Shown here in pieces: positions 5,232 to 24,010 of a stretch of DNA of 64,000 bases (its first letter is position 1; the number at the start of each line of letters is the position of its first letter). Origin of the DNA: an uncultured Myxococcales bacterium. GTDB taxonomy: Bacteria; Myxococcota; Kuafuiibacteriia; Kuafuiibacteriales; Kuafuiibacteriaceae. The position numbers were made by a program, and so were the translations under genes. The DNA lies in assembly GCA_964463485.1 (NCBI GenBank), contig CAYXDO010000014.1, forward strand, positions 34,063 to 98,062, read 5' to 3'. The notes under the pieces are model-generated. The model had not been told where the DNA came from. It ran no database searches and was given only the letters and a program-made list of their open reading frames with translations.

Positions 5232-7283
5232 TCAGTCCACGGTGATCGATTTGCTCACGTTCTTCGGGACATCCGGATGTACGCCGTGCCCGCGCAACCC
5301 GAGGGCGTCGAGGTGACTCGCCTTCTTCGTGCTCATCTCGAGCGCGAGCAACTGCAACACGACCGTCGCAGAGAACATGGCCGAGAGAGTGTCTCCGGTC
5401 CGCGGGAGCTCGATGAATTGGGACACGTACCGCGGGTTGTCGGCCGGTGGCTTGGTGGCGGCCTGGCGTAACGCGGCGTCGTCCTCGGCGATGACGATGG
5501 TCTTGGCTCCTCTGATCTTGTGAGTGTTCATTTGGGACACCGTCAAGTCCACATCTCGGACGTTCGGGCCAGTCACGTAAATCAGAGGATAGTCTGCATC
5601 CAAAGTCTCGAGCAAATCAGCACGGCGAGACGGATCGAAGCCAGGGACCGAGGCGTCGAAGAGTCCGTGCAAATTCTCGACCGCACCAGCCTCGACCGCT
5701 CGCGTCACGGCCTCGAAGAGTGCGCGGACTTGGTCGATGCCGTACACCGTACTCTTCCCAAGAATCGTGTTGGGTCCGTGTTTGAACTCGGAGGCTTCGA
5801 AGCCCTCGGTGTGATTGAGCACGACCTCGCGGATCTTGAGCGCACCTTCCTTGGCGATCGCGGCCATCCGAGTGGCCAGGATGTGAAGGCTCGGCGCCAT
5901 GAACAGAGCCGCGGCGGCGCGCTCGATGGCGGGCTTGGTTTCGCGCAGCGTGGTCTCGATGAGCACAGGGAGCCCGGCGAAGCGACGCCTGCGCTCGGAT
6001 AGTCCCAGGGCGATCGCAGCGCGGGTAGCCGGATCGACCGAAGGGTCCTCCGCGCGTTTTTCGGCGACGCGGAGCGCGAGGCCGTAGAAGACGGCCATCT
6101 GATTCAGGAAGCTCTTGGTGGCCGGCACGGCGATCTCGGGGCCGCATCGGAGCGGGATCACGAGCTCACTCTGTTCCTGACCTAGCGTAGAGCTCACGTT
6201 GTTCACGATCCCGACGCGGGTCACTTTCTTCCCTGACGCGGCGACCAAGGTCATCACGTCGACGAGATCCTTGGTCTCTCCGCTCTGCGACACTGCGACG
6301 ACCAGGTCGCCGTCCGCGAGGGTGTCCGCGTACTGACCGCGAAACTCACCGGGGAGCACGGGAAAGATCGGCGCCCTCGCGAGCTCATCGAAGAACAGCG
6401 CGCCGGCCTTGGCCGCGTGAAAGGAGCTCCCGCAAGAGACGACGTAGACATGACGGCCGCTCTGAATCGCGTGGAGGACGAGGTCCGCGAAGGAGCTCGC
6501 GGCTCGTTCGACCTCGAGGAGCTCGTCTTTGGCGAGCACCGCGTCGAACAAGATCAGCGGGACGCGGTCACCGGCGAGGGGCTCGAGCTCCGAAAAGCTC
6601 GGCGCGTCCGTGGACGACAGGGACTCGAGGAGGGGCGCCGTTCGGAGCGCGGTCTTCGTCGCCTCGGGCAACCCATCGAGAATTCCGCGCACGGAGGGCG
6701 CTCCGACGAGCTCCGCGAGCGCCGCGCGAGCGCCCGCTTCGCCCTGCGCGTCGATGAGTGCGTCGACGCGAGGCCGCAGCTCGTCGAGCGTGCGCTCGTC
6801 GAGCGCCGCGGAGAACGTTCTCAGCGCGTCGGACCCGCCAGAGAACGAGGTCACGACGTCACGGACAGTCTTCACCTGCGCATGGATCTCTTGCTCCATG
6901 AAGGTGCGAAAGCCCGGCAACAAGACGGTGTCGCGCGCTCGCAACCTGCTCTTCTTGGGCGATTTCTCGACGCGACCGCCGGCCGCGACACTCCCCTTGG
7001 CTCTGACCGCGTACACTGCCCAAGCCGCGCCGTCGTGCTCGACGAAATCACCCTCCGAAATCGGAACGACCAAGCGAGTTAGTTTGAGCACCGACGACAG
7101 ATCGGAAGAAGCCAGCGTGAAGCTCCGACCTTGCTCATCCTTCCCGAAACCGAAATACAGCGAGGAGCCCAGCTTGATCGCCCAAGAGGCGCGAGAGACG
7201 GGATCGACCACGACCGCCGCGAAAGATCCCTTGAGCATCGCCGCCGCGTCCACGATCGCCGCACGCATCGCCGCGCGCCGATC
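5232..7283 (-). pseudogene. glmS 3'-fragment (aa ~152-835 of the intact copy at 21503-24010). Lacks the N-terminal Ntn-glutamine amidotransferase domain and catalytic Cys1. Read-through N-terminus (to 7445) is non-homologous junk.
   Basis: 100 % nucleotide identity over 2052 bp with 21503-23554 (constant ORF offset of 16271 for all six frames). Identity starts exactly at the stop codon and ends inside the GATase-coding region. Confidence 0.8.
5232..7283. repeat. Left copy of 2052-bp perfect direct repeat (DR-L)
   Basis: Boundaries mapped by hand: 5231 t vs 21502 c (differ), 5232=21503 onward identical, 7283=23554 last identical base, 7284 t vs 23555 c. Confidence 0.9.
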
Positions 7284-7290
7284 TCGCGCC

Positions 7291-7326
7291 TGTTCGAACA
7301 GTGCCGCGCTTGTTCGAACAGTGCCG
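7291..7326. repeat. 16-bp direct microduplication tgttcgaacagtgccg x2 (7291-7306, 7311-7326) immediately outside the DR-L boundary
   Basis: Read directly from the sequence. Absent from the corresponding position after DR-R. Confidence 0.8.
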
Positions 7327-7372
7327 GGCCCCTTGTTCACTTTTCGGGAACAGTCGCCGGGGCCCCTTTTTT
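7323..7372 (+). terminator. Intrinsic-terminator-like GC hairpin (GGGCCCC ... GGGGCCC) followed by TTTTTT
   Basis: 7-bp all-GC stem 7326-7332 / 7359-7365, loop with an internal ttgttc/gaacag pairing, then cTTTTTT 7366-7372. No obvious plus-strand gene ends here, so the role is unclear. Confidence 0.3.
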
Positions 7373-7650
7373 GACTCTTGGTGCGAACCCTTCTGCTTGG
7401 CAGCCAGTGCTTGCACCGAGGATTCGAAGAGCGGAGCCCAGCCACGATCTTGGCTTCGGAGAATCAGTCGACTCACCGTCGGCTCCTCGCCTCCCGTGGG
7501 CAGCGGAGGGAGAGCGTCGTTTCGGACCTTCCTCGTGGTGCAGAGCATAATTAATAAGTAGGAGCATCCCGGTCGAGATCGATCTCGGCGACCCGAGCTC
7601 GGCCCGACTCGATCTCACCAGTGCCCGAGCTCGATCTCAAGCCGACGATA

Positions 7651-7680
7651 TCAGAGTCCGGGACTTGCCCGGACTCAGAG
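7651..7680. promoter_or_regulatory. Near-perfect inverted repeat tcagagtccggg-acttg-cccggactcagag, with an unusual AT-rich patch ataattaataagta at 7547-7560, upstream of the first insert gene
   Basis: Stem gagtccggg / cccggactc with a 5-nt loop. The AT-rich 14-mer is exceptional in this ~66 % GC DNA. Lies 65-200 bp upstream of the 7746 start, which has an AAGGAG-like RBS (gaaggag) 8 nt upstream. Confidence 0.3.
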
Positions 7681-7745
7681 GGCGACGCTACTCATAACGA
7701 GTCGAATTCGACACATTAGTCGAGATCGAAGAAGGAGCACCCGAA

Positions 7746-9149
7746 ATGAACCCGGTCCCAATCGTTGCGTTGGTCGCCCTGATCCACGCTACCTCGCCCT
7801 CCCCCGCTACGTCCCCGCCTTTGATCGCTCGTCAGGAGTTTGACGGGAGTCGCCCGCTCGAAGCCAGAGCTCAGCTTGGTCCGAACCGAGGCCGCCTCGT
7901 GATCTCCGGCGGCCAGCTCGCACAAGTCCTCCCCGGACCCGGCATCCGCGAGCGCTTCTGCTTCGACGCGCTTCCCGGCGATCGGCACGCTGCCCTGCGG
8001 ATGAATCTCGCCAGCGGCGCCGCCGCGGAGTTGTTCATCCAATACGACGATCCGAGCTCTTTCGTCAGCGTCGTCGCTTTCGCGTCCGGCGCCGGTCGAA
8101 TCGTCACGCGCACCGCGGGCGGCGACACGATCGTCGCCAACTTCTCCACGGGCATCGTGCGGAACTTGTGGTCGCGAATGCGAGTCGAGGCCAGTCAGAT
8201 CGACCTCGGTAACTCCGAGATCCTGATCTCGATCGATGGCGCGCCGATCGCTTCCGCGGTGGTTCCGCGAGCGATTGAAGGGTCTGCGGTGTGTTATGGC
8301 GTGCGCGGACAAGCGCGCCTAGCGTGGACCGCGCTTTGGGGCTGTGCTGCGGGTGAGATGTTCACAGAAGCTTCGTGCCAGGCACGCGAAGCCAACAGGT
8401 GCGCCGACGGGGTGACCACGAGCTCCGAGGAGTGCGACGACGGCAACACCTCAGACGGTGACGGTTGCTCCGCTGTCTGCACGGCTGAGTTCTGCGGCGA
8501 CGCGCTCCTCTCCGGCGTCGAAGAGTGCGACGACGGCAACACCTCAGCCGGTGACGGTTGCTCCGCCGTCTGCACGATCGAGTCATGCGGTGACTCGATC
8601 CTCACGGGCACCGAAGAGTGCGACGACGGCAACACCGCAGGCGGTGACGGTTGCTCCTCCCTTTGCAGGATCGAGCCCACTGTCTTGTACTCTCAGCCCT
8701 TTGACGCTCCGAACTTCGTGGAAGGGATCGTGGGCTCGCAGGCGTTGTTCGACGGCGCTTCGTGGCTCGACATGGGCGGCGGATCGCAGCTCTACCACTC
8801 CAACTCGGGCCGACCGAGCTCAGGCTCCATGTCCGTTCGCAAGAGCTTCATCTCTTCGTGGTCCGGAGCCCTCGTCTACTCGATTCCGGCTCCGGCTCGG
8901 TCCGACGAAGTCCTTCGCGTTCGGTTCTGGATTTACAGCGCGCTCGGCTCGTTCGACCTCGGCGTGAACCGTGCCGGTGGTGCCACCGTCACTCGAACGA
9001 TTCCGATGGGCGGTTGGACGCTCGTCGACGCCCAGCTCTTGAGCAGCCTCGACACGAGTGAGGCCTACATTCTGTTGGGCGCCATGCCGCCTGACCCGTC
9101 TGGTTGGAGCGTGAAGGTCGACACGATCATCGTCGAGCTCACCCCGTAG
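7746..9149 (+). CDS. Secreted protein with three myxobacterial cysteine-rich repeats (TIGR02232-like: ECDDGNTxxGDGCSxxCxxExCGD)
   Basis: Three ~20-aa Cys-rich repeats (8390-8690 at DNA level, ~60-bp period). Hydrophobic N-terminus. RBS-like gaaggag upstream of the ATG. Confidence 0.7.
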   Translation: MNPVPIVALVALIHATSPSPATSPPLIARQEFDGSRPLEARAQLGPNRGRLVISGGQLAQVLPGPGIRERFCFDALPGDRHAALRMNLASGAAAELFIQYDDPSSFVSVVAFASGAGRIVTRTAGGDTIVANFSTGIVRNLWSRMRVEASQIDLGNSEILISIDGAPIASAVVPRAIEGSAVCYGVRGQARLAWTALWGCAAGEMFTEASCQAREANRCADGVTTSSEECDDGNTSDGDGCSAVCTAEFCGDALLSGVEECDDGNTSAGDGCSAVCTIESCGDSILTGTEECDDGNTAGGDGCSSLCRIEPTVLYSQPFDAPNFVEGIVGSQALFDGASWLDMGGGSQLYHSNSGRPSSGSMSVRKSFISSWSGALVYSIPAPARSDEVLRVRFWIYSALGSFDLGVNRAGGATVTRTIPMGGWTLVDAQLLSSLDTSEAYILLGAMPPDPSGWSVKVDTIIVELTP

Positions 9150-9653
9150 CCGCCAATCGTCGACACGTAGCCGTCGACGAATCATGCCTTCGGCCGCCCT
9201 GCCGCGGGACTACTCGCGGCGCTGCCAAGGGCTACCCGACTCCGACCTACCCACGTCGACCCCAATCGGGTTCGTTCTCGACGAGCCGACTTCAAACTCA
9301 TCCAGACGTTTGCGTCGAACGCGTTTGTACTCATCAACTCGCACGCCGCATTCTTGCCTCATGAATACTGCCCCCCGCCGCCAAGTCGTCCGAGCGTTAC
9401 ATCGATTGGGCTTCAACGCCACGAAAGGAAACGGAAGCGGCCACACTGTGTTCGTAGACCTCTGCGGTCGAAAAGTCCAAGCGGTCGTTCGCTCGAAGAA
9501 GACTCACCACGTCGAGGCCACGGCGCGGAGCCTGGAGCACTTCGGTGTCTGCACCAGGCGGGAGTTCTTCGAATTGGTGCGGCGATCGTGAAGAATTTGT
9601 CGATCGTGTGGGACTCACGCGGAGGCTCGGCGCACCTTGACTCCGCGCCAGCC

Positions 9654-11165
9654 ATGGCAGAGCCTGCGTCCATGACGGGTGCGGATCTGGCTTGGCAGTC
9701 CACCATGGAGCGAATTCGGGACGTCACGGCGACTCAGAGTCACGTCACCTTTTTCGGAGAGCCCGGAAGTGGCCGCAAATTCGCCGCGACAACCCTCTGC
9801 GCCGAAATTCGGACAACTGACTCGGGCGCCAGCTTTCGATTCCTCGAGTGCCGCGGCCTCGCGGTCCAGGCGGCAACGGAAGCGCTCGCGGCCGGTGGCG
9901 AGCTCGTCGTGCTCGTGTTGGCTCACGCCGACGAGCTGCGCGAAGAGCCCGCGAGCGTGATCCTGTCACGGCTGGGTACGCTCGAGCTGGAGCCGACGGC
10001 CCGGCCGAAACTTCGCGTTGTTGCGACGGTTTCGAAGCTTGATCAGGGCCCCCTCTCGACGCTCGAGACTGTCGAAGTTGCCACGCCGAGCCTGGCCCAG
10101 CGAGAGGATCAGAGCTTCGACACGATCCGCAAGTACTGGCAGCTTTTTGGCGGTCAGGGCTCGAGCCCCTCACTGGCAGAGCTCCGATCGGGCAACTTAC
10201 GCGAGCTGAAGGTTCGGGCACGTCGGAGCCAAGACGCACCGACTCAGAGTCAGGCCGCCCGATCCGAAGGGCTAGATTCGCATCCGGCTACTCCTGCCGA
10301 GCGCTCCGTCGATTTGGAAGTCGCGGCACCGCTACGGGCCCTCCTTACCGGACCTCCTCGAGGGCAGCTACTCACCGATTGGTTCCGCGAAGGCAACCAC
10401 TCGAAAACGCCAATCGGTGTCCTCAACGGTCTCTTTAGGAAAGGCCCAGGCAAAACGGATCATTCGCTGTTGAAGCAATGCGTCGCAGAACAGGCCAAGC
10501 TCATCATGGACCGAAACGGGGGCCTCGATCCGTCACGACCCCTGGACCGACACCTCTTGCTTGGGCAACTGTTCGACAACTGGCCGACGTTTCGTCCTGG
10601 TGCGGACGGAGACATACGTGTTGGTTTCCTCATCTCCGAGGCGAGAGAGAGAAGGGAGGCGCGCGAGCTTTTGGCGCAAATTCCGGAGCTGATGAACGTC
10701 TTTCCTGAGTTGGCCCAACTCTACGGCTTCGTACCAACCGAGGTCGATTCCACAGACTATGATGACCCCGCAAAACTCGCAAAACTGTTGAAGAAGAGCG
10801 TCGACGGACTCGAGAAGATCGGATATCACGTGCATCAGAAGCGCGGCGACGCGGAGTACCCGACCCTCGAACACGACGCACTGTCAGCAATCGGCACAAT
10901 GTTGTCCAAAGGTGGCAACCTAGGCGCCCACTCGAACCTGCTCACAGATCATGAGATGAAAAGCGTCAATTTCGAATCTACTGAAGCCGGCTATCATCTC
11001 GCATGCAGCGAAGGCGAGGGCAAGCCGTGCGTCTTCGTCGTCCGCGCCGACTCGCTACCGGTTGCGAAGAAGTCGATGTTCTGGGTGCCACTCATCGTTC
11101 TCGTTCGAAAGACGGCCTTGCGTCGTGGCTCTATACCGGCCATGGATCAACTCCGCTTGCCATGA
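9654..11165 (+). CDS. Degenerate sigma-54-activator-like AAA+ domain protein (pseudo-bEBP), gene A of the insert operon
   Basis: Residues after MAEPASM align with a bEBP AAA+ core. HVTFFGEPGSGRKF matches VLVTGESGTGKE but with K->R at the Walker A lysine position. LVVLVLAHADEL matches TLFLDEIGDMSL with DE->AH. The GAFTGA loop is absent. VEVATPSLAQREDQSF matches I.lPPLReRxeDI. Listed ORF begins at 9354, but the first ~100 codons look like leader, so 9654 ATG is chosen (uncertain). Stop overlaps gene B start (ATGA at 11162-11165). Confidence 0.6.
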   Translation: MAEPASMTGADLAWQSTMERIRDVTATQSHVTFFGEPGSGRKFAATTLCAEIRTTDSGASFRFLECRGLAVQAATEALAAGGELVVLVLAHADELREEPASVILSRLGTLELEPTARPKLRVVATVSKLDQGPLSTLETVEVATPSLAQREDQSFDTIRKYWQLFGGQGSSPSLAELRSGNLRELKVRARRSQDAPTQSQAARSEGLDSHPATPAERSVDLEVAAPLRALLTGPPRGQLLTDWFREGNHSKTPIGVLNGLFRKGPGKTDHSLLKQCVAEQAKLIMDRNGGLDPSRPLDRHLLLGQLFDNWPTFRPGADGDIRVGFLISEARERREARELLAQIPELMNVFPELAQLYGFVPTEVDSTDYDDPAKLAKLLKKSVDGLEKIGYHVHQKRGDAEYPTLEHDALSAIGTMLSKGGNLGAHSNLLTDHEMKSVNFESTEAGYHLACSEGEGKPCVFVVRADSLPVAKKSMFWVPLIVLVRKTALRRGSIPAMDQLRLP

Positions 11166-14100
11166 CCGAGTCTCTCGAGCGTCAAGGCCTCGGGGGCCGC
11201 TCCGCCGAGGCAAATTGGCTGACTCACAAGCTCGGTCGCGCTCCCATCGTTTGGGTGACTGGCCCACGCGGTATCGGAAAAACGACGATCGTGGAGCTCA
11301 CGCTCCAGGCAGCGACCGGTGCGCACTGGATCTTCCTGGACGCGCGACATTTCACCAGGGCAGACGCGAAGGTCGAGCGTGCCTCGCTCCTCGAGGCGCT
11401 CGCCACGGCTGTACTCACCGAGCTCGAACAGCAAGTACATCTTCCTCCGGCCGCCTGGGCCGCGGACGGTCGTTGGAGGGCCTTCGTCGATCACGCGCTT
11501 CCGTGCCTTGGCAGCGCGACCTGGGTCTTCGCTCTGGACGAGACGGATGTTTGGTCCTCAAACGTTCTCGTCGAGGTTACGGCCGCGCTGCGAGGCGTCG
11601 CCAATCGGCTCCGGTACCCGAGTCGAGCGATGACATGGATTCTGATTCGAGGGGATCGTTGGGGTGAGGATCGGGCGGATCTCCCGCGTATGGCGGATCC
11701 CGTGCTCGAGGTCGGGCCGCTCGACTCGAGCGCGATCGTCGCGGTCTGTGCGAAGCTTGCGGACCAGGGAAAGAATGCGTCTGCCGAGGCTCTCGCACTC
11801 ATCGAGCAACTCACAGCTGGCTATCCGCTCGCCTTGGCCGCACTCGTCGAAGCGCTGAAGACCGTTGAGCCAGATGAATCCGGACAGGAAATCTGGCCGT
11901 ACCCACCTTCGTCTCTCCAACCGTGGGGAGTATGGCGGGCGCTCGAGCGCCTCGAGGCGCAGGCGATGGGTCACGGTTCTGCGTTGTCGAGGGGCGAGAG
12001 CTTCGAACGGATGGAACACGCGCTGCTCCAGGCCGATCCTCCGGCGCGCAAAATGCTTTTGACCGTCGCGACCGTCGAGCAGCTCGAGTGGACGGAGATT
12101 TCGCTCTTGGAGGCGCTCGAACGAGCTTGGCCGGAAGAGCTATGGAACAATCCGGAAAGTGTCTCCCTCTTCGAGTCCACACTCCGAGGACTCGTACGGA
12201 CTCACATGCTGGTGCGCGTCGGCGTCGATGGCGCGCGCCACGTCGTGCCGATGCTCGCGAGATTTTGTCTCGCGCTCGGGACTGCCAAAATTCGGGCCTG
12301 GGAGAGACCGCACCTTCACGAGGTTGACCTCTTGCTCCAAGAGGTCAACACCGCGACGACTGACGAGACGAGGACGGAGTTGCTCCGACGGGCGCTGGAC
12401 GCCGACGATAGTGATCCCCGGGCCCTCCTCGCTCTCGCGAGGATTTGTGCACGTGGTTCGGAGTCGACTCAAGCCGAGTCGTTGGGTGAGGCGCGGCGAC
12501 TCTATTCGCGGGCACTGCGGGTGCTGCCCCAGCGAGCGTCCGAGCGGCGAGGTGTCGAGAGCGAGCTGCTGCACGTGCTCCAGCGGCTCGTCGCAGCGGG
12601 CGCTCCGGAGGATGCGATCGGAGAGTTGGCGAGAGGTGATCCGTATTTTGCGGACGACTCTCGAACGGCGAGAGCGCTGCATTTGTGGCTCGAGCGGCGC
12701 TGGTCCCAGGCGTGGGAGACTCCTCCGCCCAAGGAGATCGACCTCGCCTCATCGCGGCATCGATGGGAACAGCGAGCGGAGGGTCTCTTCGTTACTCTCC
12801 CTGGACATCGAGAGTTCGTCGCCAGAGCCCTTGGGTCGCACCTGGCCACTTGGCCCAGCCCGGATCTCGAGTGGCTGAACGCGCTGCTGGCGATCATGCC
12901 CGATCTTCCGGCTGTCGACCTCGATCGAGCGCCTTCTCCCGTGCTGTGGTCGATGCTCTATTCGGCGTGGAACACTCGAGACCGACTGTTCACGCCGGCT
13001 GCGCATGCACTTTCGTCCAAGGACTGGCTTGCGTTGGTCCGCTGGTGTCCGGGCTCGGGCCCGGCCATCTCGGTGCTGACCCAGTATCTCGCCGAAACTG
13101 TCTCCGCACTGGGAGGGGCCGACGCCCTCGAATTCGGGCCGCTCCTTCTGTGGCTTAGGGAGCGCGACAAACCAATGGGCGACGCGGCCGTTTCCCATGT
13201 GCTCCGCTCGCTCAAGCGCCCTGCCGTCGGGCCTGTGAGTCGAGACGCGGTCCGGGCGTGGCGCGAGCTCGCTCCAGACCTCGAGCTGACCTCCCACGAT
13301 ACCGCCGATCAATTCAAGAAGACCTTCATCTCCGGTTGGCGCCAAATCAGCGAACCCGAGAAGCTGGACGGCGTGGAACATCGGTTGATCGAGCGCGACT
13401 CCGGACCCGAGCCACGTCCGCGAGCCCTCCATCGACTGTTTCCCTCTCAACAAGGGCTTGAGCTCGACTTGGCCGAGGCTTCGTTTGCACGTGAGCAGCG
13501 CCTGCTTGAATGGCTTGGCGACTCGCGAGTGAACGCGGTTCCTCGCCTCCTCGATACCGGCTCGTTGGTCGACGACTCTAACAACAAACTCGGCTTCTAC
13601 TCGGTCGTGTCCGAGCCTGCATCGGAGCGCGAGGCGACCTCGCTGCGCACGCTCATCCGAAGACAAACCTCGAACGGCCGCAGTGTGGCCAGCCTCAGCC
13701 GAAGCTCCTTCTGGCACATGATCGCCTCGCTCTTCGAGGCTTTGAGCCACATGCACCAGAGGGCCGTGTTTCATCGATCCGCGCGGCCCGACTACGTCCG
13801 TGTGAGTCTTCCCGAAGATCCGAAGCGCGAGCCCTGGCGGGTGACCTTGATCGGCATGGAATGGAGCTATTACCTCCGGAACCCAACGGGTATGGGTGCC
13901 TATCCGCGTCGACGCCTGGACTACTCGCTCGCCCCAGAGACTCTTTCAGCTCCGTACGGCGAGACTTTCGGCACCGACCTCTTTTCGATGGGCGTACTCA
14001 TCGCTGAATGCCTCGCGTCCGATCGGCTCGACCTCGGCCCGTTCGCTGAAGGTGAGTACAGCCGCGCAACCCAGATCAGGCACATAGAAGCTTGGCTGAG

Positions 14101-16867
14101 CAAGCTCGAGCACGAATCGAGCTCGGTCCGCGCCTTCGTGCGCTGGCTCCTGTCCATCGAGCCAAAGGACCGCCCCAGCGCCGCCGTCGCCCGCCTCGAG
14201 GCCCAACGCCAAGCCCTCGACCCCAAAGAGCTCGGAGCCTTACCGATTTTCGCGCACCTCGGAGGCTCAGATCCCCTGGCGAGCAGCGCGACGCTTCCTC
14301 ACTGGCTGCGCGACCGTGCCGAGTGGATCGACCAGATCCCCTTCGACGAGCCCAACACCTGGCGGAGACTCTTCCGCAGACAACTCTGCCAGGAGCTTGC
14401 AGGCGCCTCCATTTTTGTGAACTCGATCGGCCTCGCCCAGCGAGCTCTCGATGGTCCCGAGGCCCCCGAAAAATGGCCCTTGTTTCTGATGAGCAAGAGC
14501 GGCCTGGAATTCCGGCTGGGAAAGGCGTCCCTCGAGCTCGAAGGCGAGCCCCGCAGGCAGAGAGAGTCGGGGGCGTTTCTCGAGGTCGCGCGCCGATTTG
14601 AGGGCGACTCTCCCTTTGGTCCTCCCATCGGACAGCTCCCAGAAGCCGGTGACATCCGGTTTTTCGCGATAGACGAGGTCGACTCGCTCCAAGGAGTCGA
14701 CAGTGAGTCGTATGAGATTCTCCGAAGCCGTGATCGTGGCTGGGCGCCGCTGTTCGAGTCCGCCGAGCAAGCACTGAAGGCCGAGCAGACCGAGACTTCG
14801 ATCGTGCAGAGGCGACTGGCCCTCCATGCCATGCTCAACCTCGCCAACGAAGCCGAGTACGAGCTCGTCGGAGGAGAAATCGAATACGTTCGAGTAGAGG
14901 ACCCTGCTTTCCCGAACATGCTCCTCGTTCGTGAGCCATCGGCGGCAAGTGCGTCCGCCTCGAGCGCGCCCAGCCCCCTCCAGCGTATTTTCGCCGCTTG
15001 GACCGATGTGGATCCCGTGGTGGAGGTGGCCTCCAAACAGGGCGCGCGAGCCATCACCGAGATTCCTTTTCCCGACCCATCCCTCGCCATCGGACCCAAT
15101 GGCACCGTGGCCCTCGCTGGCATGAAGTTCGGCCTGAGTCCGGCACGGTGGAGCCTGATACCGCCTATGGGCGTGCTGCGAAGCCCGGTCGCCGAGTTGG
15201 CGCTGAGCTTGTTTCGCCGACGCCGTCGGGTCCTACGAGAGCTGCTCGACCAGCCGAACGTCCTCGATGCGTTGGCCGATCCCACAAACTCGTCCCGCGT
15301 GGTGCCTGGCTTGCGAAAACCGTTCGAGTATCCAGGTCTCGACGACGACAAGAAAGCCTGTCTGCGGCAAATGGACGAAGTCCGGCCCCTGCTGGCCGTA
15401 CGCGGGCCTCCCGGTACCGGCAAGACTCAGCTAAGCCTGGCCACTCTCCATCGCGAGCTGAATCGAAATCCCCACGCCCGAATCGCTGTGGTCGCGCCTA
15501 CTCACGACGCTCTCGATCACTTGCTCGAGAGCTTTCTGGCCTCCTCGGATCGGGGACCGGCTTTCGAGAGGCGAGTTTTGTCCGCGACCGTCGTCCGGAT
15601 TCCTTCTGGCAAGCGTCCTCTCGACCAATATCCTGCGACCGTCAAAACCAAGTTACCCTCGGTGCAGGCGGAGGAGCTTTACCGCAGGCTGCGAGGCTGG
15701 ATCGACGGATCTCGAGCTCGACCTCACTCACCCGCCGGGCAACTCGCCTCCGCGGTCGAGGCGGAGTTGAAGCTCCTCGGCGGCACCAGCGAAGATCCGA
15801 CCAGCGGGCTGGCCGCCTGGTTGGCTGACTCGGCGAACGTCCTGTTGGCGACGGCCAACTCCGGTCCCATTGCGCGAGTTGCGCCTGACAGCTTCGACCT
15901 CTTGATCGCAGAGGAGTCCGGAAAATGTGGAGCCGTCGAGCTCGCCGGAGCCATGCGTGTCGCGCCGAGGTGGCTCATGATCGGTGACGAGCGCCAACTC
16001 CCGGCCTTTGGCCTTCAAGACGTCGAGGACAAAGTCTTCGACTCGATCAACGCGGCGTCGGAGGCAGGGTCGAGCCAGATACCTTCTCCGGTCGATACGT
16101 TGAACCTGTTCGGTCACGTCATTGCGCAGGAGGGGCCCCACACGCAAACGCTCACACACGCTTGGCGATTCCATCCAAAGCTCCTTGCCGTCGTCGCTTC
16201 GTTCTATGATGACAAAGCGACACTCATCCCCGGCGACGTCGACCTAGCCAGGAGGAAGACTCATGAGCTCCGTGCTTCTCGTCTTGGCAAGAATCTGAAG
16301 GATAATCTGAAGGATAAGCAGCTCGTCTGGGTCGATTTCGAAAACAGTGAGGCCTATCGGGAGCGCCGGGAGCTGGGCGGGGGAATTCACAATGAAGCCG
16401 AACGCCGAGCGATCGTAGGCTTCCTACGTGCCCTGGACGCACGGTGCGCCCAGCCTCGACTCACGGTGTTATCGTTCTACAAGCGACAGGTCGAGCACCT
16501 TCGAGGATTGCTCGCAAACCAGGTGAATACCTTCGATGTCTTTGGAAAGCGCGGGATTGAAGACTTCGTGTCGACGGTCGACTCCTTTCAGGGTCGCCAA
16601 GCCCCGGTCGTCTTGCTGAGTATGTGCCGCAACAACACCGAAACCGAGGCCTCACGACGTTTTGGGTTCCTGACGGACCGACGACGCGGAAACGTGGCCT
16701 TCTCGAGGGCGGAGAGTCTTCTCGTGATCTTCGGATGCCGCGCCCATTTCGCGGAGCTGAAGTGGGTCAAAGACCAAGTTCTGAGTCGGGTCCAGCTCTT
16801 CCTCAAGGCCTCGGATATCTTGAGTGATTCCGAGACATCCAAGCTCATGGAGAGCGTCGGGCCGTGA
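11162..16867 (+). CDS. Giant (1901 aa) multidomain protein: N-terminal STAND/AAA-type P-loop NTPase + helical/TPR-like region + degenerate Ser/Thr protein-kinase-like domain (pseudokinase) + C-terminal Upf1-like SF1 helicase (COG1112-type). Gene B.
   Basis: Walker A VWVTGPRGIGKTTIVEL and Walker B WVFALDETDVW. Kinase-like segment HMHQRAVFHRSARPDYVRV (HRD->HRS), TLIGMEWS (DFG->LIG), YSLAPETL (APE), DLFSMGVLIAECL, EPKDRPS, with no VAIK Lys. Helicase motifs LAVRGPPGTGKTQ (I), VLLATANSG, FDLLIAEESGKCG (II-like), WLMIGDERQLPAF (III), VDSFQGRQAPVVLLS (V), NVAFSRAESLLVIFG (VI). Start chosen at ATG 11162 overlapping the gene A stop (listed ORF starts upstream at 11003 inside gene A). Confidence 0.85.
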   Translation: MTESLERQGLGGRSAEANWLTHKLGRAPIVWVTGPRGIGKTTIVELTLQAATGAHWIFLDARHFTRADAKVERASLLEALATAVLTELEQQVHLPPAAWAADGRWRAFVDHALPCLGSATWVFALDETDVWSSNVLVEVTAALRGVANRLRYPSRAMTWILIRGDRWGEDRADLPRMADPVLEVGPLDSSAIVAVCAKLADQGKNASAEALALIEQLTAGYPLALAALVEALKTVEPDESGQEIWPYPPSSLQPWGVWRALERLEAQAMGHGSALSRGESFERMEHALLQADPPARKMLLTVATVEQLEWTEISLLEALERAWPEELWNNPESVSLFESTLRGLVRTHMLVRVGVDGARHVVPMLARFCLALGTAKIRAWERPHLHEVDLLLQEVNTATTDETRTELLRRALDADDSDPRALLALARICARGSESTQAESLGEARRLYSRALRVLPQRASERRGVESELLHVLQRLVAAGAPEDAIGELARGDPYFADDSRTARALHLWLERRWSQAWETPPPKEIDLASSRHRWEQRAEGLFVTLPGHREFVARALGSHLATWPSPDLEWLNALLAIMPDLPAVDLDRAPSPVLWSMLYSAWNTRDRLFTPAAHALSSKDWLALVRWCPGSGPAISVLTQYLAETVSALGGADALEFGPLLLWLRERDKPMGDAAVSHVLRSLKRPAVGPVSRDAVRAWRELAPDLELTSHDTADQFKKTFISGWRQISEPEKLDGVEHRLIERDSGPEPRPRALHRLFPSQQGLELDLAEASFAREQRLLEWLGDSRVNAVPRLLDTGSLVDDSNNKLGFYSVVSEPASEREATSLRTLIRRQTSNGRSVASLSRSSFWHMIASLFEALSHMHQRAVFHRSARPDYVRVSLPEDPKREPWRVTLIGMEWSYYLRNPTGMGAYPRRRLDYSLAPETLSAPYGETFGTDLFSMGVLIAECLASDRLDLGPFAEGEYSRATQIRHIEAWLSKLEHESSSVRAFVRWLLSIEPKDRPSAAVARLEAQRQALDPKELGALPIFAHLGGSDPLASSATLPHWLRDRAEWIDQIPFDEPNTWRRLFRRQLCQELAGASIFVNSIGLAQRALDGPEAPEKWPLFLMSKSGLEFRLGKASLELEGEPRRQRESGAFLEVARRFEGDSPFGPPIGQLPEAGDIRFFAIDEVDSLQGVDSESYEILRSRDRGWAPLFESAEQALKAEQTETSIVQRRLALHAMLNLANEAEYELVGGEIEYVRVEDPAFPNMLLVREPSAASASASSAPSPLQRIFAAWTDVDPVVEVASKQGARAITEIPFPDPSLAIGPNGTVALAGMKFGLSPARWSLIPPMGVLRSPVAELALSLFRRRRRVLRELLDQPNVLDALADPTNSSRVVPGLRKPFEYPGLDDDKKACLRQMDEVRPLLAVRGPPGTGKTQLSLATLHRELNRNPHARIAVVAPTHDALDHLLESFLASSDRGPAFERRVLSATVVRIPSGKRPLDQYPATVKTKLPSVQAEELYRRLRGWIDGSRARPHSPAGQLASAVEAELKLLGGTSEDPTSGLAAWLADSANVLLATANSGPIARVAPDSFDLLIAEESGKCGAVELAGAMRVAPRWLMIGDERQLPAFGLQDVEDKVFDSINAASEAGSSQIPSPVDTLNLFGHVIAQEGPHTQTLTHAWRFHPKLLAVVASFYDDKATLIPGDVDLARRKTHELRASRLGKNLKDNLKDKQLVWVDFENSEAYRERRELGGGIHNEAERRAIVGFLRALDARCAQPRLTVLSFYKRQVEHLRGLLANQVNTFDVFGKRGIEDFVSTVDSFQGRQAPVVLLSMCRNNTETEASRRFGFLTDRRRGNVAFSRAESLLVIFGCRAHFAELKWVKDQVLSRVQLFLKASDILSDSETSKLMESVGP

Positions 16868-18987
16868 CCGAGGAGCGCTCCGAGGACGGTCGACGAACGC
16901 TCTACGCTCGGGGCAGAGTCTATCGTCTGACCCTGTCGGGGCGCGTCCAGGAATCATGGCTGGAACGCGCGATCCTGGCGGCCTGCGCGCAAACCAAACT
17001 CACTCTGTCGGACCTGCTGTCCGCCGCGCGTCTCGACCACCGGGCCCCGAAGAGAGTCCCGCTACCCGAGGGTCTGTTCGTCGACGCCGTGGCGAAGCTG
17101 TTGGAGCGAGGACGACTGTCCGTGAAGCCTTCCGACGGAAGCCTCTGCGTAGGCGGTACGCCGTCCCCGGAGCTCGACGCTGCGAACTCTGTCGACGTCG
17201 AGGTCTGGCGAGACGACGCCACGGGTACCATCTGGCCGCTCGACTCGGTTGGGGCTCCGAGGGTCCGCACGGCGGCATCCAGGGACCAAATCCGAAGGAG
17301 CGGACCGGTGCTCGGCGTCGATCTTATGAGGGCCTCGAGCGCCCGAATCATCGAAGAGCTCCGGCTTCGAATGCCCGGCGCAGTACCCGACGTCGCGTCG
17401 GAGGTACTCGGGCGCCAAATGGCCCAGCAGTTTGAGTTTCTCAAGATCGAGGCCGTCGAACGCGAGGACGGCCGCTTGGCCGTGACCTCGCTCGTTCCGT
17501 GGCGCTTGCGCGCCGCCTGGGCCCGAGTTTCCCTGCCCGGAATCGAGCTTGCCCCACGAGATTCGATCCGCGTCGAAGCGACCCCGGAGCCCCCTAGCTG
17601 GAATCGCTCCTTCGATCGGTGGGTCGCGGCGATCGATAGCAACGAGGAAACCGGTCCCGCTCAGAGCGAGCTGCTGAGTCTTTTGGATCGTCGCCTATAT
17701 CCCCGACTCGTGCGGTCCACCGACATATTCGAGAGTGTACCCTCGACGCGCCACCAGACTTACATGGGAGCCGGCCCGAACTCTGCCGGGCACCTCCGTG
17801 CGCTCATGAAGGAGGTCCCCGCTGGGCTAGCCATCAAAGTGGACTCGACGGAGGCCTTTGTCGCTGTCGATTCCCACACCCTTTTTCTCGGGGGCTCCTT
17901 CAATCCCCAGCACAAAGGAAGCCATAGCTTCAAAGTCATGGGCTGGGTCGCCGTCACCGCCTTTCTGCGGGCCGCAATCGGCGAAGAAGTCGCTATCTCT
18001 TCCGAGCCCGACTCACCGACCGTCTCGCGCCTCCGTAACGCGATCGACGGCGCGGCTCGCTCGATGGACCCCGAGCTCGCGCGCCGTGTACCCATCGAGG
18101 TCGACGTCGGCCACCCGGTCATTTGGCTGAGCACCGACGACGCCGAGTTTCTCGCGGCCTCCATCGAGTGGACGATCATTGCCCTCTCTCCCAAGCTCGA
18201 CCGCCCCCCCGCGTGGATTCGAAATGCCTCCGGCGAGCCTACCGTCGGCCTCTACTGCACCACCCCAACCGAGCCGACGAGCCCACCAGACGTGTGGATC
18301 TCGAACACTGGCGGCTGGGTCTTGGTGGGCTACTGGTCGATCGGATATTTCGGCTGCAGGCAATCGGCCGAGCTCGGCTCCACTCTTCGAGACATGATCG
18401 GTGACTGGGAGCTTCAGGCTCTGGAGACGGATGCGCCAACCGTCGCTCCCAGCCCTCCAAACCACAATCCGTCCCCACTGTCGAAACCTGTCCCGCCGAT
18501 CGGAGCTCCGAAGCCGACGCCGACAAACGAACCCAATCCACCGAATGCGCCCTCTCCCCTGCAATCGGACGTGACGAGTTCGAAGGCACCAGTGGCCAAG
18601 GCACCCGGGGCTCCTTCAGTCGCACCTGGACCTGAAAATATTGTCAGATCGATACTCGCTCAGCTCGGCCAGACGCCCGTCGAAGGGGACTGGCAGCTCG
18701 AGTACGATAGACTCTTCAAAGCCATAGGCAAGCTCGACTTCGTCTCGAAGAACGACCGTGGCGCAAAGCTCTTGGTCGCCCTGCTCGCTGCTCGAGTCAA
18801 CGCGCTCCAAGAAGGTTGGCCAAAGCCCTTGCCCAACCTCATCAAAGCCCTGATCGGGTTCACGAAGAAGACTCAAATTGGACTCATCCATGGACTCAGC
18901 AGGCAACACACGAGTCAATCATGGCTCGAGGAAGCCCACAGCGCTGAGCAGGCGCTGGTCGAGCTCTTCGAGCCCAAGGGGCCTTAG
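16864..18987 (+). CDS. Hypothetical 707-aa protein, gene C of the operon. Globular N-terminal ~480 aa, Pro-rich linker (PSPPNHNPSPLSKPVPPIGAPKPTPTNEPNPPNAPSP), C-terminal ~110-aa helical domain.
   Basis: GTG start at 16864 overlapping the gene B stop (GTGA). Good coding GC3. No recognisable catalytic motif; HxKx4D PLD, PD-(D/E)xK and HNH were looked for and not found. Confidence 0.7.
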   Translation: MTEERSEDGRRTLYARGRVYRLTLSGRVQESWLERAILAACAQTKLTLSDLLSAARLDHRAPKRVPLPEGLFVDAVAKLLERGRLSVKPSDGSLCVGGTPSPELDAANSVDVEVWRDDATGTIWPLDSVGAPRVRTAASRDQIRRSGPVLGVDLMRASSARIIEELRLRMPGAVPDVASEVLGRQMAQQFEFLKIEAVEREDGRLAVTSLVPWRLRAAWARVSLPGIELAPRDSIRVEATPEPPSWNRSFDRWVAAIDSNEETGPAQSELLSLLDRRLYPRLVRSTDIFESVPSTRHQTYMGAGPNSAGHLRALMKEVPAGLAIKVDSTEAFVAVDSHTLFLGGSFNPQHKGSHSFKVMGWVAVTAFLRAAIGEEVAISSEPDSPTVSRLRNAIDGAARSMDPELARRVPIEVDVGHPVIWLSTDDAEFLAASIEWTIIALSPKLDRPPAWIRNASGEPTVGLYCTTPTEPTSPPDVWISNTGGWVLVGYWSIGYFGCRQSAELGSTLRDMIGDWELQALETDAPTVAPSPPNHNPSPLSKPVPPIGAPKPTPTNEPNPPNAPSPLQSDVTSSKAPVAKAPGAPSVAPGPENIVRSILAQLGQTPVEGDWQLEYDRLFKAIGKLDFVSKNDRGAKLLVALLAARVNALQEGWPKPLPNLIKALIGFTKKTQIGLIHGLSRQHTSQSWLEEAHSAEQALVELFEPKGP

Positions 18988-20095
18988 AGGTCGTTTCGTC
19001 GTCGCGATTCCATGCTCACGGATGGATACGCTGATCCCCCGCTCTGGGAATCGCAAGAGGTATCAACAATCTCGCGCGGCTAGTCTAGGGCCCGCATCGC
19101 GCAACTGATTTCGCGGCCGGAGCCCAGATCCTGGGCGCCGGATCGTCGTTGGTGTCATGTCGCGTCGGCGGTCGCGACCGCGTGGGTGATTGCTTCGGTG
19201 CGGACGAGGAGACTGTGGGCGGAGCATTGGTATCTCAAGGTCGTCCTCACGAAGTCGGTGGCCGAGGTCGCCGGCACGCCGGCCGAAGACCTGACACGTT
19301 CTTTGGTCGAACTTGAGATAGGAAGCTCCTGGATTTCGACGAGACCCAGGTGACGAGAGTTCGGGTCTCGGAGGGTGCGACATTTCTCAAGTTCGAAAAG
19401 AACGCGGCCGACGAGTGGGGGGCCACGCTCGCCCACACTAGGCAAGCCCAAAGGCTACAAGCTCGACGGAATCATCGACACGGTTCCGACCGTGCGAGCG
19501 ACTCGATACGACACTAACGATCCGGCCGCGGAGCTTCGACCCGCGACGAAATCAGTGGCACATTACGGGCCCAAGGGATTGCTTGGCACGCTGTTGGTAG
19601 GTCGTTCATGGAAAGTGGTGAACGTGCTGACGTTTGCGATGGTCGAGGGGCGAAGAAGGTAGCCGTGGTGGAGACCTCGGCGGTGGACTCGATCCCCGAC
19701 GAACTCGGGGAGCTACTCGACGGCAAGTGGGAAACCGACTTCCGCGCGTCGCCGAGATCGATCTCGGTGCCAGCCCGAGACCCGCCAATGTCAACTTCGC
19801 AGGCGCCGAGCTTCGGGGACTCGGGGTCGGTCGGGTTGACCGATCTCGACGGAATCTCTATTCATTTTCGACGCCGCCGTTCGTAACGGGACGCGGCCAT
19901 CGCTCCGAGATTAATCTCACTGCAATTCAAGTCATCTCTGACTTCGATCTCGGCTGGTGTAATCTCCGTCGCCGCTATTTACGGGGTGTGTTGGGCTGGG
20001 CTTGAATCGGGCGGCTCGATAAAACGTCGGGCAAGGAGGCCGTCTGTGACAAAAATTGGATTGATAAGCACGCTGGTCGTGCGGGAGGTACACCG

Positions 20096-21097
20096 ATGAT
20101 CGCGAACCACATGATGAAGGAGAAAGTCTCCGCCGAGGGGAGCCTTCGCAGGCTCTTCAGAAACCTCGTGGTGGCAGCGCTGCTGATTGGCGTGGCGTGC
20201 GGTGGTATCGAGCAAGACGGTGACGAGGAGGTCGGTGAGTCCAAGGAGGCCCTCGTGGCGGGTCTCTACTGTGGCGACGGCAGCGCCGGTCGACCCACGC
20301 GCGGCACTCTCTACCGATACAACGGCGCCACGTTCTCCGTGGATCGGGTCTGCGGCGGCGCGGGGACGTGCGGCGTCAACGCTGCCGGCGTGAACGACGC
20401 TTGCGTCACGAACTCATCCGTCCTCGAGAACGCCATCGCCAACGCAGCCCGCAGCGTTCACGGCTCAAACGCTCCGGTGGCGGCTCCGGCGTCGTTGGTG
20501 AGCGCCAACCCGGCGGCTACGTGGCTCACCGACGTGTCCGGTTTGGCGGGAGCGCAGGTCCGCGCGGCGATCTTGGACTACAGCCGCTTCATGGGTTCGG
20601 CGACGAACCAGCCGCCGTCGGCCAGTGTGCGGGCGTCGATGGTCGCTCGCCTCACGAGCTTCAACGCCGTCGACCGAGATGCCGTCGTGAATCGAATCGT
20701 AGCGCGCTACGCTCGCACCGTGCCGACCACTGACCAGCAGACTCTCGATTTCTTGGGAGTTCGGACGCAGTGCAAGGAGTTCGCCGACCGCATGGTGCGC
20801 CTCGGCGGCGGGACGTCGGCGACGTACGCGTCGTACTTGACGAGGAAGGTCAGCCGACACAGCGAGTTCCGACGGGGGCTCGTGGCGGTCAAGGGCACCA
20901 ACGCCCACGCCGGAATCATCACCGCCGTGACGCGGGACGCCACCGGAAACATCACGGGGATCGAGTTGACGGAGACAAATTGGGGCACCGGTTGGAATAG
21001 CCCGATCGGGCAGGTGCCTTGGAGCCGAGTGATCGCGAAGCGAACCCTCACGGTCGCCCAGTTCACCGCGGCGTACTCGGCCACGCGAAACCAATAG
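20096..21097 (+). CDS. Putative lipoprotein/secreted protein of unknown function (possible Cys/His papain-like or NlpC/P60-like fold, speculative)
   Basis: N-terminal LLIGVACGG signal/lipobox-like sequence. AT-richer promoter-like region 19900-20095 with aaggagg RBS upstream. Candidate Cys (TQCKEF) and His (NAHAGIITAV) but no confident family assignment. Confidence 0.55.
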   Translation: MIANHMMKEKVSAEGSLRRLFRNLVVAALLIGVACGGIEQDGDEEVGESKEALVAGLYCGDGSAGRPTRGTLYRYNGATFSVDRVCGGAGTCGVNAAGVNDACVTNSSVLENAIANAARSVHGSNAPVAAPASLVSANPAATWLTDVSGLAGAQVRAAILDYSRFMGSATNQPPSASVRASMVARLTSFNAVDRDAVVNRIVARYARTVPTTDQQTLDFLGVRTQCKEFADRMVRLGGGTSATYASYLTRKVSRHSEFRRGLVAVKGTNAHAGIITAVTRDATGNITGIELTETNWGTGWNSPIGQVPWSRVIAKRTLTVAQFTAAYSATRNQ

Positions 21098-21315
21098 GTC
21101 CTACCTTCGGCCCTCCGGGTCCTCTCCTCTCCTCTCCCGACGAGGCGTCCGAGATCGAACCCATCCGCACCGGCCCCCAGTGGCCGCGATAGTGAAGGTC
21201 ATGATGTGGGGTCAACAACCCGAAGGCGCCGAGCATCGTCCGATCCCGAGTCGTCCGCAAACATGCCCGCTCGGTTCGACAGCACCGTCACCACGAGCTC
21301 CCACCCGCCAGGTCG

Positions 21316-21392
21316 ATGTCGGACTCAAATGTCGGACTCAAATGTCGGACTCAAATGTCGGACTCAGATGTCGGACTCGGATGTCGGACTCC
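21316..21392. repeat. 13-bp tandem repeat atgtcggactcaa x ~6 (last units degenerate: ...cag, ...cgg, ...cc)
   Basis: Read directly from the sequence. Lies ~110 bp downstream (3') of the glmS stop / DR-R boundary, in an intergenic stretch. Confidence 0.85.
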
Positions 21393-21502
21393 AGGGATTA
21401 GTGGTGTACAGACGTACTTTGCGGCGTCGCTCGGCGCCGTGCCGTCGCCATCGTGCCCCCGAGTCGAAGACGCCCGCGCTCTGATGCGGCCCGTGCCGCC
21501 AC

Positions 21503-23554: not shown

Positions 23555-24010
23555 CATGGGGCCCAGGCCTTCGCGCAGGCGCTGGGCGAAGAGGTGCTCG
23601 ATCGTGTGAACGACCATCTCTCCGTCGTTGTCGGAGACGACCGCGTGGCCTTCCTGAATGAGCCATTTTTTCTGATCGTCGGAGTTGGTGACGTTGCCGT
23701 TGTGGGCCCCGTACATGAAGGTCTTGCAGCGCACGACGTGGGGTTGGCTGTTCTGCTCGTCGACCGCGCCGAACGTCGCCCAACGCACCTGACCCGCCAT
23801 GATTTGGCCGGCGAGGTTCACGATGCCGAGCTCATGAACCATGACGGAAGGAGCTCCCACGCCCTTCCTCAGTGTGACTTCCTCACCGTCCTGGATGGCC
23901 GCTCCGGTCGAGTCGTACCCGCGATACTCGAGCATCTGAAGGAGCTCGGCCGCGACACGCCCGAGGTCGTTTCTCTTCTGGTCGAACACGAGTCCGATCA
24001 CGCCGCACAT
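21503..24010 (-). CDS. glmS: Glutamine--fructose-6-phosphate aminotransferase (isomerising), long 835-aa form with a ~200-aa insertion between the GATase and SIS domains
   Basis: N-terminus MCGVIGLV (Cys1 Ntn-amidotransferase), RWATFG and HNGNVTN motifs, FMEQEIHAQ linker. Two SIS domains (VSCGSSFHAA..., VAVSQSGETKD). C-terminus ...KSITVD, like E. coli ...KSVTVE. Confidence 0.85.
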   Translation of the reverse strand: MCGVIGLVFDQKRNDLGRVAAELLQMLEYRGYDSTGAAIQDGEEVTLRKGVGAPSVMVHELGIVNLAGQIMAGQVRWATFGAVDEQNSQPHVVRCKTFMYGAHNGNVTNSDDQKKWLIQEGHAVVSDNDGEMVVHTIEHLFAQRLREGLGPMDRRAAMRAAIVDAAAMLKGSFAAVVVDPVSRASWAIKLGSSLYFGFGKDEQGRSFTLASSDLSSVLKLTRLVVPISEGDFVEHDGAAWAVYAVRAKGSVAAGGRVEKSPKKSRLRARDTVLLPGFRTFMEQEIHAQVKTVRDVVTSFSGGSDALRTFSAALDERTLDELRPRVDALIDAQGEAGARAALAELVGAPSVRGILDGLPEATKTALRTAPLLESLSSTDAPSFSELEPLAGDRVPLILFDAVLAKDELLEVERAASSFADLVLHAIQSGRHVYVVSCGSSFHAAKAGALFFDELARAPIFPVLPGEFRGQYADTLADGDLVVAVSQSGETKDLVDVMTLVAASGKKVTRVGIVNNVSSTLGQEQSELVIPLRCGPEIAVPATKSFLNQMAVFYGLALRVAEKRAEDPSVDPATRAAIALGLSERRRRFAGLPVLIETTLRETKPAIERAAAALFMAPSLHILATRMAAIAKEGALKIREVVLNHTEGFEASEFKHGPNTILGKSTVYGIDQVRALFEAVTRAVEAGAVENLHGLFDASVPGFDPSRRADLLETLDADYPLIYVTGPNVRDVDLTVSQMNTHKIRGAKTIVIAEDDAALRQAATKPPADNPRYVSQFIELPRTGDTLSAMFSATVVLQLLALEMSTKKASHLDALGLRGHGVHPDVPKNVSKSITVD

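Follow-up and report, generated by a model that had tools for sequence, protein, structure and literature searches.

What might a single bacterial protein do that joins a STAND-type nucleoside triphosphatase (NTPase), a kinase-like domain and a Upf1-like helicase, and does it belong to a recognisable system? This question is raised by a gene at positions 11162-16867 (+) of a 64,000-nt stretch of DNA, referred to in full as the window, from an uncultured Myxococcales bacterium (GenBank assembly GCA_964463485.1, contig CAYXDO010000014.1, positions 34,063 to 98,062 of the forward strand). Motifs, Pfam, PADLOC and a family alignment describe its 1901-aa product as a STAND NTPase, a helical region, a pseudokinase, a linker and a Upf1-like helicase, that is, an MkoA-like core with an N-terminal extension. 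In type I Mokosh, MkoA combines a COG1112/Upf1-like RNA helicase with a Ser/Thr-kinase domain and adjoins the gene for the phospholipase D (PLD) nuclease MkoB, and mutations in the helicase ATP site or the PLD active site abolish defence in the published E. coli systems (Millman et al. 2022, preprint). Here we propose, with a probability of about 0.6, that the gene belongs to a rare, unnamed MkoA subfamily with a STAND NTPase and helical module at its N-terminus, and that the locus most likely encodes a type I Mokosh variant in which a STAND module is fused to MkoA, the kinase-like domain is a pseudokinase and the partner is not of the PLD type. The first-pass annotation of this DNA, made from the sequence alone, had called the architecture unusual for a bacterium, which holds for the N-terminal STAND fusion and the non-PLD partner, whereas the combination of a kinase-like domain with a Upf1-like helicase had already been described in MkoA. 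What appears to be new here is the STAND fusion to the MkoA core, the conserved dead kinase and the non-PLD partner.

The open reading frame (ORF) runs uninterrupted to 16867, and its longest version in the ORF list of the window starts at 11003. We take ATG 11162 as the real start, because it and the stop of the upstream ORF overlap as ATGA, because a separate gene call on a Logan contig carrying this sequence also begins there, and because it places the Walker A motif where relatives have it, in keeping with the family N-terminus. The 1901-aa reading frame proposed earlier was therefore retained, the landmark motifs quoted for it were all located in the translation, and the order of STAND NTPase, helical region, kinase-like domain and Upf1-like helicase was recovered by motifs, Pfam, and profile and fold searches. 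The statements on homology and architecture made below for this protein are held with high confidence.

The link to Mokosh is provided by the PADLOC MkoA model PDLC03920, of which positions 32-1090 out of 1112 align with aa 752-1880 (E=1.4e-125); one relative, P0002, scores 2e-145 on the same profile. An exhaustive phmmer search over 1.84 billion cluster representatives returned 49 matches at E<=1e-3, of which ~13 are proteins of 1950-2200 aa with a kinase-like segment at the same relative position, giving ~14 clusters in all, distributed over Sorangium, Magnetococcales and soil metagenomes. In a rough neighbour-joining tree of the kinase-like-to-helicase module, the 14 long proteins group as a single clade in which the window protein has the longest branch, and two public records of the family are named only 'AAA domain-containing protein' or 'AAA family ATPase'. 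Word-index homologue searches gave one relative for the 1901-aa protein, none for its downstream partner and one unrelated kinase for the family profile, while a profile scan of genome contigs was saturated by generic helicase motifs, missed the long family and yielded classical Mokosh loci.

At the C-terminus, the Upf1-like superfamily 1 (SF1) helicase (aa 1393-1865, 15338-16756, +) is matched by AAA_11 (aa 1393-1616, E=2.6e-15) and AAA_12 (aa 1649-1859, E=2.6e-28) in Pfam, and an IGHMBP2-family match was also found. The helicase motifs noted at first reading are intact, namely motif I GPPGTGKT (aa 1415-1422, 15404-15427), motif II (EE), motif III GDERQLP, motif V TVDSFQGRQA and motif VI FSRAE, and their residues do not vary within the family. 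Between the kinase-like domain and motif I lies a linker of ~375 aa with mixed beta and helical character (14207-15337, +; pLDDT, the per-residue AlphaFold confidence, 75-90), which is covered by the MkoA profile and conserved in classical MkoA, including its RRRxVL and LDxDK motifs.

The feature that sets the subfamily apart is the ~720-aa STAND and helical module fused in front of the MkoA core. Its P-loop NTPase (aa 10-235, 11189-11866, +) matches AAA_16 at aa 12-114 (45 bits against a cutoff of 32.6) and nSTAND6 (32.5 bits against 27.7) in Pfam. Walker A GPRGIGKTT (aa 34-42, 11261-11287) and Walker B FALDETD (aa 123-129, 11528-11548) stand where they had been read near the N-terminus, and inspection of the sequence suggests a STAND-type GxP motif in AGYPLAL (aa 219-225, about 11816-11836; family consensus GHPLF). 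Across the 14 full-length members, G34, R36, G39, K40, D126 and E127 are invariant and P222 is nearly so, and the module is matched by AAA_16 in all 14, ATPase_2 in 10, nSTAND3 in nine, NPHP3_N in eight and NACHT in seven. The helical region that follows (~485 aa, 11867-13321, +) may be a sensor or repeat module. An earlier description of this stretch as TPR-like stands as far as its helical nature is concerned, while its TPR character is drawn from relatives only: TPR_19 matches four of the 14 (best E=3e-7), and the region in the window protein has no Pfam match, TPR included. The N-terminal 720 aa gave zero matches against PDB sequences, and no Avs model was among the PADLOC matches of the window protein. 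We found no separate gene for the ~720-aa module in the classical Mokosh loci sampled and no STAND module fused to an MkoA core in the literature searched.

The middle segment (aa ~735-1015, 13364-14206, +) has a protein-kinase fold far beyond chance, as the first-pass annotation had supposed. Pfam places Pkinase at aa 844-1008 (E=4e-7; 30.1 bits, slightly under the cutoff of 31.7), covering the C-lobe only; two active Ser/Thr kinases encoded elsewhere in the window score 96-115 bits against the same model, versus 30 bits here. A single-sequence search of aa 700-1400 against PDB sequences recovered Nek7 and other kinases at E~1e-4; in that alignment, HRS stands opposite HRD, Arg opposite the catalytic-loop Lys, Tyr opposite the Asn and LIG opposite DLG. 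A 15-sequence family profile matched 505 distinct PDB kinase sequences at E<=1e-3 (best 4e-11), aligning from beta3 through the C-lobe. The AlphaFold2 model of the segment is of moderate quality (mean pLDDT 69), with a poor N-lobe (35-55) and a better C-lobe and linker (75-90), and Foldseek gave 418 matches to the PDB at E<=1e-3, the top 50 of which are all protein kinases (probability 1.00, ~300 aligned columns, TM scores to the target of 0.45-0.52).

The active site of this fold seems to have lost its canonical catalytic residues. In the window protein, R758 replaces the beta3 Lys, S873 the HRD Asp, R875 the catalytic-loop Lys, Y878 the Asn and G898 the DFG Asp, and no Gly-rich loop is recognisable. 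The change from HRD to HRS (aa 871-873, 13772-13780) and the preserved APE (aa 924-926, 13931-13939) agree with the first reading, and the alphaF region (DLFSMGVLIAECL), the subdomain XI Arg and the alphaC Glu E778 are likewise retained. Two earlier details need amending. LIG had been given as the DFG counterpart; the Asp is absent either way, but the family alignment and the profile-to-PDB alignment place the equivalent at G898-M899-E900 (13853-13861), two residues downstream of L896-I897-G898. The beta3 Lys is gone, as claimed, but its position is occupied by Arg758 and not simply missing. Across the 16 members of the family alignment, the HRD Asp occurs in none (S, A, T, N or F stands there), the DFG Asp is kept in one and the Asn in three, the catalytic-loop Lys is mostly Arg and the beta3 Lys mostly Arg, the DFG Gly has become an invariant Glu in the motif FEWSxYL, while the alphaC Glu is kept and APE is kept in 15. 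The degeneracy is thus conserved in relatives and not a recent loss in this copy, and the domain is best described as a putative conserved pseudokinase, for which the scaffold or allosteric sensor role suggested at first reading would be reasonable.

The same degeneracy reaches beyond the long family. A local search of the fetched loci with a kinase-plus-linker profile gave ten classical proteins of 1070-1290 aa; the three that were scanned with PADLOC all score as MkoA (E down to 6e-271). Seven genes lying directly downstream were scanned as well; six of them are recognised as MkoB with a DrmC/PLD-like C-terminal domain (E down to 1e-90), and four of those six show HxK...D...GSxN motifs. On alphaproteobacterial plasmids, the same pair is annotated as 'AAA domain-containing protein' and 'phospholipase D-like domain-containing protein'. 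A canonical kinase site (HRD, Asn, DFG) is kept in classical MkoA of Nostoc and Clostridia (L016, L020), and a degenerate one with HRN or HRA (HTG in one) and FE[W/M]S or FQMS is found in those of actinobacteria, Novacetimonas and a Sandaracinaceae metagenome-assembled genome (L003, L006, L008, L011, L023, L042 and L004), including loci that contain MkoB/PLD. Given that the degeneracy is common to the window family and many classical MkoA, the pseudokinase state appears to be clade-wide in MkoA and not peculiar to this gene. In the literature searched, we found no paper joining Mokosh and pseudokinase.

The big gene is predicted to be the central gene of a translationally coupled operon (9184/9588-18987). 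Its downstream partner, gene C (16864-18987, +; 707 aa), begins with a GTG that overlaps the big gene's stop and carries an N-terminal domain homologous to that of MkoB. A partner gene of 585-798 aa overlapping the stop codon of the big gene is present in all ten long-family loci examined, and in the fragment P0004 the partner is fused to the big protein (E=5e-14). The N-terminal ~70 aa of the partner match the N-terminus of MkoB, at the same position in both (hhalign probability 74-87%, E=4e-6 to 3e-5), while the HxK PLD motif is absent from all nine partner sequences aligned. We considered whether the partner is a diverged MkoB or PLD protein; BLAST gave nothing, PADLOC and Pfam gave nothing even at permissive thresholds, and hhalign was significant only over the N-terminal ~70 aa. 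The window partner retains D336-x6-GGSFN, which recalls the distal half of the HKD motif and may be a PLD remnant, a lead and not a result. The partner family profile found nothing in the PDB, and a structure prediction from a two-sequence alignment was unusable (pLDDT 32.6). With no MkoB match for the partner, PADLOC would call no complete Mokosh system here.

Upstream, gene A (9588-11165, +; 525 aa), whose stop overlaps the start of the big gene (ATGA), encodes a degenerate sigma54-activator-type AAA+ domain (GEPGSGRK, GNLRELK; Sigma54_activat only at E=0.098) plus ~300 aa without a recognised fold. It is preceded by a 135-aa ORF (9184-9591, +), possibly the first gene of the operon, which is called as a gene in the Logan contig, has a stop that overlaps the next start (GTGA), and yields only a weak HicA_toxin match (E=0.019) and no PHROG match. 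The upstream genes of relatives are varied. Three (L083, L084 and L085) encode bona fide sigma54-interaction AAA+ domains with GAFTGA, a receiver domain being added in one relative, and L002 has a sigma54-type AAA+ truncated by the contig edge, with only the AAA lid and GNVREL visible; elsewhere, the modules are HTH_3 (L086), PNP_UDP_1 (L088) and HD-CE (L090). Behind such swappable N-terminal modules, seven of 11 upstream proteins have a C-terminal domain of ~315 aa in common, a pattern typical of conflict systems. This shared domain (seen among L083-L091) shows PPG..., hhhhD and CC motifs and a weak AAA_22 match, and may be an uncharacterised adaptor domain. A promoter and terminator scan was uninformative, with fewer terminator-like sites than in shuffled sequences.

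Here we speculate on how such a system might work. By analogy with STAND proteins and Avs, the helical region would sense a ligand derived from the invader, and the STAND NTPase would convert sensing into a nucleotide-dependent conformational or oligomeric switch. The pseudokinase, placed between switch and engine, might then act as a non-catalytic relay or scaffold coupling the STAND switch to the helicase, a plausible role, and the Upf1-like helicase would act on RNA of the invader or on a replication intermediate, in line with the proposal made for Mokosh. Output might pass through the MkoB-related partner, through the variable upstream protein (HD-CE, nucleoside-phosphorylase-like or sigma54-type AAA+), or through both, and not through a PLD nuclease. 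We consider a defence function, anti-phage or anti-mobile-element, to have slightly better than even odds, a judgement by analogy that draws on the homology to MkoA, on the swappable upstream modules, and on the contexts of the loci, which include a genomic island, genes of the integrative and conjugative element (ICE) type, transposases, Lamassu and a GTPase conflict cluster.

These contexts deserve a closer description. Around relatives, a Lamassu system was found at one locus, a GAP1-N1/DO-GTPase/GASH/GAAD conflict cluster with an HD-CE upstream gene at another, ICE-type genes at one locus, and IS4 transposases on the 16-Mb chromosome of Sorangium sp. So ce216. In the window, the operon lies on a unique island of 14.2 kb (7284-21502), bounded according to repeat analysis by two copies of an exact 2,052-bp direct repeat (100% identity) derived from glmS. 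The left copy (5232-7283, -) is a truncated 3' part of glmS, and the right copy (21503-23554, -) is the 3' part of a full-length glmS-like gene (21503-24010, -). An independent Logan assembly recovered the island as a separate contig of 14,092 bp that breaks at the left repeat boundary and has its other end inside the right-hand tandem repeat. The glmS repeat layout resembles that of a duplication, or of a circular element that entered through homologous recombination; the island yielded no integrase, transposase or tRNA (the tRNA scan was empty), Rfam on 1-30 kb gave nothing, and PHROGs gave nothing on the island ORFs. At the left edge of the island lies a ~98-nt relic of a second MkoA-like gene (7392-7487, -), with 82% DNA identity to 14692-14789 and 19 of 24 aa identical to aa 1186-1209, which we take as evidence, at the sequence level, of a former second, inverted MkoA-like copy.

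Some further observations were made on the island and its boundaries. The glmS-like gene encodes 835 aa, compared with ~610 aa in typical GlmS, and the glmS models cover its GATase and SIS domains piecemeal and below equivalog cutoffs, which implies large insertions. Tandem repeats occur at both ends, with five GTCGGACTCAAAT-like units near the right end (~21308-21390) and two to three copies of TTGTTCGAACAGTGCCG at the left junction (7290-7340). The first gene of the island (7746-9149, +) encodes a 467-aa protein with three myxobacterial cysteine-rich acidic repeats (TIGR02232/DUF4215), which are themselves encoded by 93-nt tandem DNA repeats at 8400-8678. At the right end, a 333-aa ORF (20096-21097, +) has a hydrophobic, signal-like N-terminus and no match in the family libraries. 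A larger defence island in the window was ruled out, as the neighbours of the island are ordinary genes. Among the genes beyond the island, a response-regulator/DUF4388 protein of 1398 aa (33923-38119, +) contains 15-nt-periodic repeats (GCCGCAGAGAGAGCC-type) at 35540-36340 that encode an Ala/Glu/Lys/Arg-rich low-complexity stretch matching an HC2 histone-like profile.

Several findings weigh against a Mokosh-like defence system at this locus. The flanks of the island hold ordinary myxobacterial housekeeping and signalling genes and not defence genes. The window partner has no Pfam, NCBIfam, PADLOC or PHROG match, with nothing for MkoB, PLD or DrmC even at E<=10; it aligns with the other partners over only ~280 aa, its C-terminal half being unalignable, and the C-terminal module of the partner family gives a weak PLD-like signal (hhalign probability ~19% versus 96% for a PLD1-versus-PLD2 control). 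Gene A has neither GAFTGA nor detectable homology to the C-terminal domain shared by the upstream proteins of relatives, and the presence of sigma54-type activators upstream might be read as a sign of regulation and not of immunity. No member of the family is more divergent than the window copy (21-29% identity to the rest), and type I Mokosh lacks biochemical characterisation; according to a 2025 survey, it could not be purified.

Among other explanations, it is possible, albeit on a tentative footing, that the ~2000-aa proteins and their two overlapping neighbours form a distinct three-gene immune system and not a variant of Mokosh, in which a STAND sensor is hard-wired via the pseudokinase, as an allosteric relay, to the helicase and the PLD nuclease is replaced by a non-PLD partner and swappable upstream modules. 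If a three-gene system of this kind is real, much of classical type I Mokosh would work with a dead kinase.

We regard it as unlikely that the kinase-like domain is alive, as an atypical enzyme or nucleotide-binding module with a non-canonical site in the manner of SelO-type AMPylases, CASK or WNK, signalling within the system. The residues W851, H865, H871, R872, P876 and E900 are invariant around the degenerate site in the 14-15 members compared, conservation extends to the alphaC Glu E778 and to R780, with Arg or Lys at the beta3 position, and the invariant H865, H871, R872 and E900 in particular may leave room for an atypical activity; moreover, a fully canonical kinase in some classical MkoA (L016, L020) means that catalysis matters in part of the family. 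However, all four canonical catalytic positions have been lost together, the Gly-rich loop is unrecognisable, the predicted N-lobe is poorly defined, and conservation of these residues would be equally expected of a structural or interaction surface.

Equally improbable in our view is an operon outside immunity, in which the genes would form a housekeeping or developmental module for RNA/DNA remodelling or signalling in myxobacteria and other complex bacteria, regulated by a sigma54 activator. The sigma54-interaction AAA+ genes upstream in four relatives, one with a receiver domain, would fit this, as would the abundance of Ser/Thr kinase, FHA and response-regulator genes in the surroundings of the window gene and the lack of a recognisable nuclease in the operon. 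The distribution of the family is nonetheless extremely sparse and patchy (~14 clusters among 1.84 billion, in the groups named above), its loci lie on an island, near ICE genes and transposases and beside Lamassu and a GTPase conflict system, its upstream genes carry interchangeable modules that resemble effectors, HD-CE and PNP_UDP_1 among them, and the homology to a validated defence protein is strong. Least probable of all is that the window copy is a decaying, non-functional relic of a Mokosh-like system that has lost its partner nuclease. In favour of decay are the divergence of its proteins, greater than in any other member, an upstream AAA+ that reads GEPGSGRK and is without GAFTGA, a partner whose C-terminal half cannot be aligned, and a nearby fragment of a second MkoA-like gene. 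Against it, the 5.7-kb ORF has no interruption, none of the invariant NTPase and helicase residues is missing, three or four consecutive genes still overlap at their start and stop codons, and the loss of HxK is common to all nine partner sequences and not confined to this copy.

A STAND-fused variant of type I Mokosh would be of interest beyond this locus. Type I Mokosh is widespread, its mechanism is unexplained, and its helicase-nuclease pair has been proposed as the root, or prokaryotic counterpart, of the MOV10L1-PLD6 pair of the piRNA pathway. The degeneracy of the MkoA 'Ser/Thr-kinase domain' in a large share of the family, alongside an intact site in other members, raises the question of whether kinase activity is needed at all. 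In addition, the existence of a natural variant with a STAND switch joined to MkoA and no PLD motif suggests a way in which sensing, the work of the helicase and the effector output may be wired, and that this wiring may be changeable.

Compared with known systems, the window protein combines parts that are otherwise found separately or in another order. With eukaryotic-like pseudokinases it has in common a kinase fold that keeps APE, the alphaF region and the subdomain XI Arg and is without the beta3 Lys, HRD Asp, catalytic Asn and DFG Asp; the fold differs from theirs in being one part of a bacterial multi-domain protein, flanked by a STAND NTPase and a helicase, and in the family's own conserved replacement motif, FEWSxYL, with an invariant Glu for the DFG Gly. 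With eukaryotic Upf1 and MOV10L1 it shares the Upf1-like SF1 helicase family (AAA_11/AAA_12), whereas those proteins have neither kinase-fold nor STAND modules, and the MOV10L1-PLD6 (Zucchini) pair has a PLD partner, none being detectable in the window operon. Like Avs and STAND NTPases generally (Leipe et al. 2004), it has a P-loop NTPase with Walker A, Walker B (DE) and GxP motifs followed by a long helical region, TPR-like in some relatives, and such proteins likewise occur in defence-island contexts. In Avs, however, the layout is effector, NTPase and sensor, whereas here the order is NTPase, helical region, pseudokinase and helicase, with the STAND module at the extreme N-terminus and the presumed effector or engine, the pseudokinase-helicase part, C-terminal to the helical region.

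The closest likeness is to type I Mokosh. The kinase-fold domain, the ~375-aa linker and the Upf1-like (COG1112-type) SF1 helicase are matched end to end by the MkoA profile, the partner gene lies immediately downstream with overlapping codons and an N-terminal domain homologous to that of MkoB, and the pseudokinase signature HR[N/A/S]...FE[W/M]S is common to the window family and to classical MkoA of actinobacteria, Novacetimonas and the Sandaracinaceae genome. The window system departs from type I Mokosh in three respects: its partner is without the HxK PLD motif and without a MkoB, PLD or DrmC profile match, an extra STAND and helical module of ~720 aa precedes the MkoA core, and a third, upstream overlapping gene with variable modules joins the pair.

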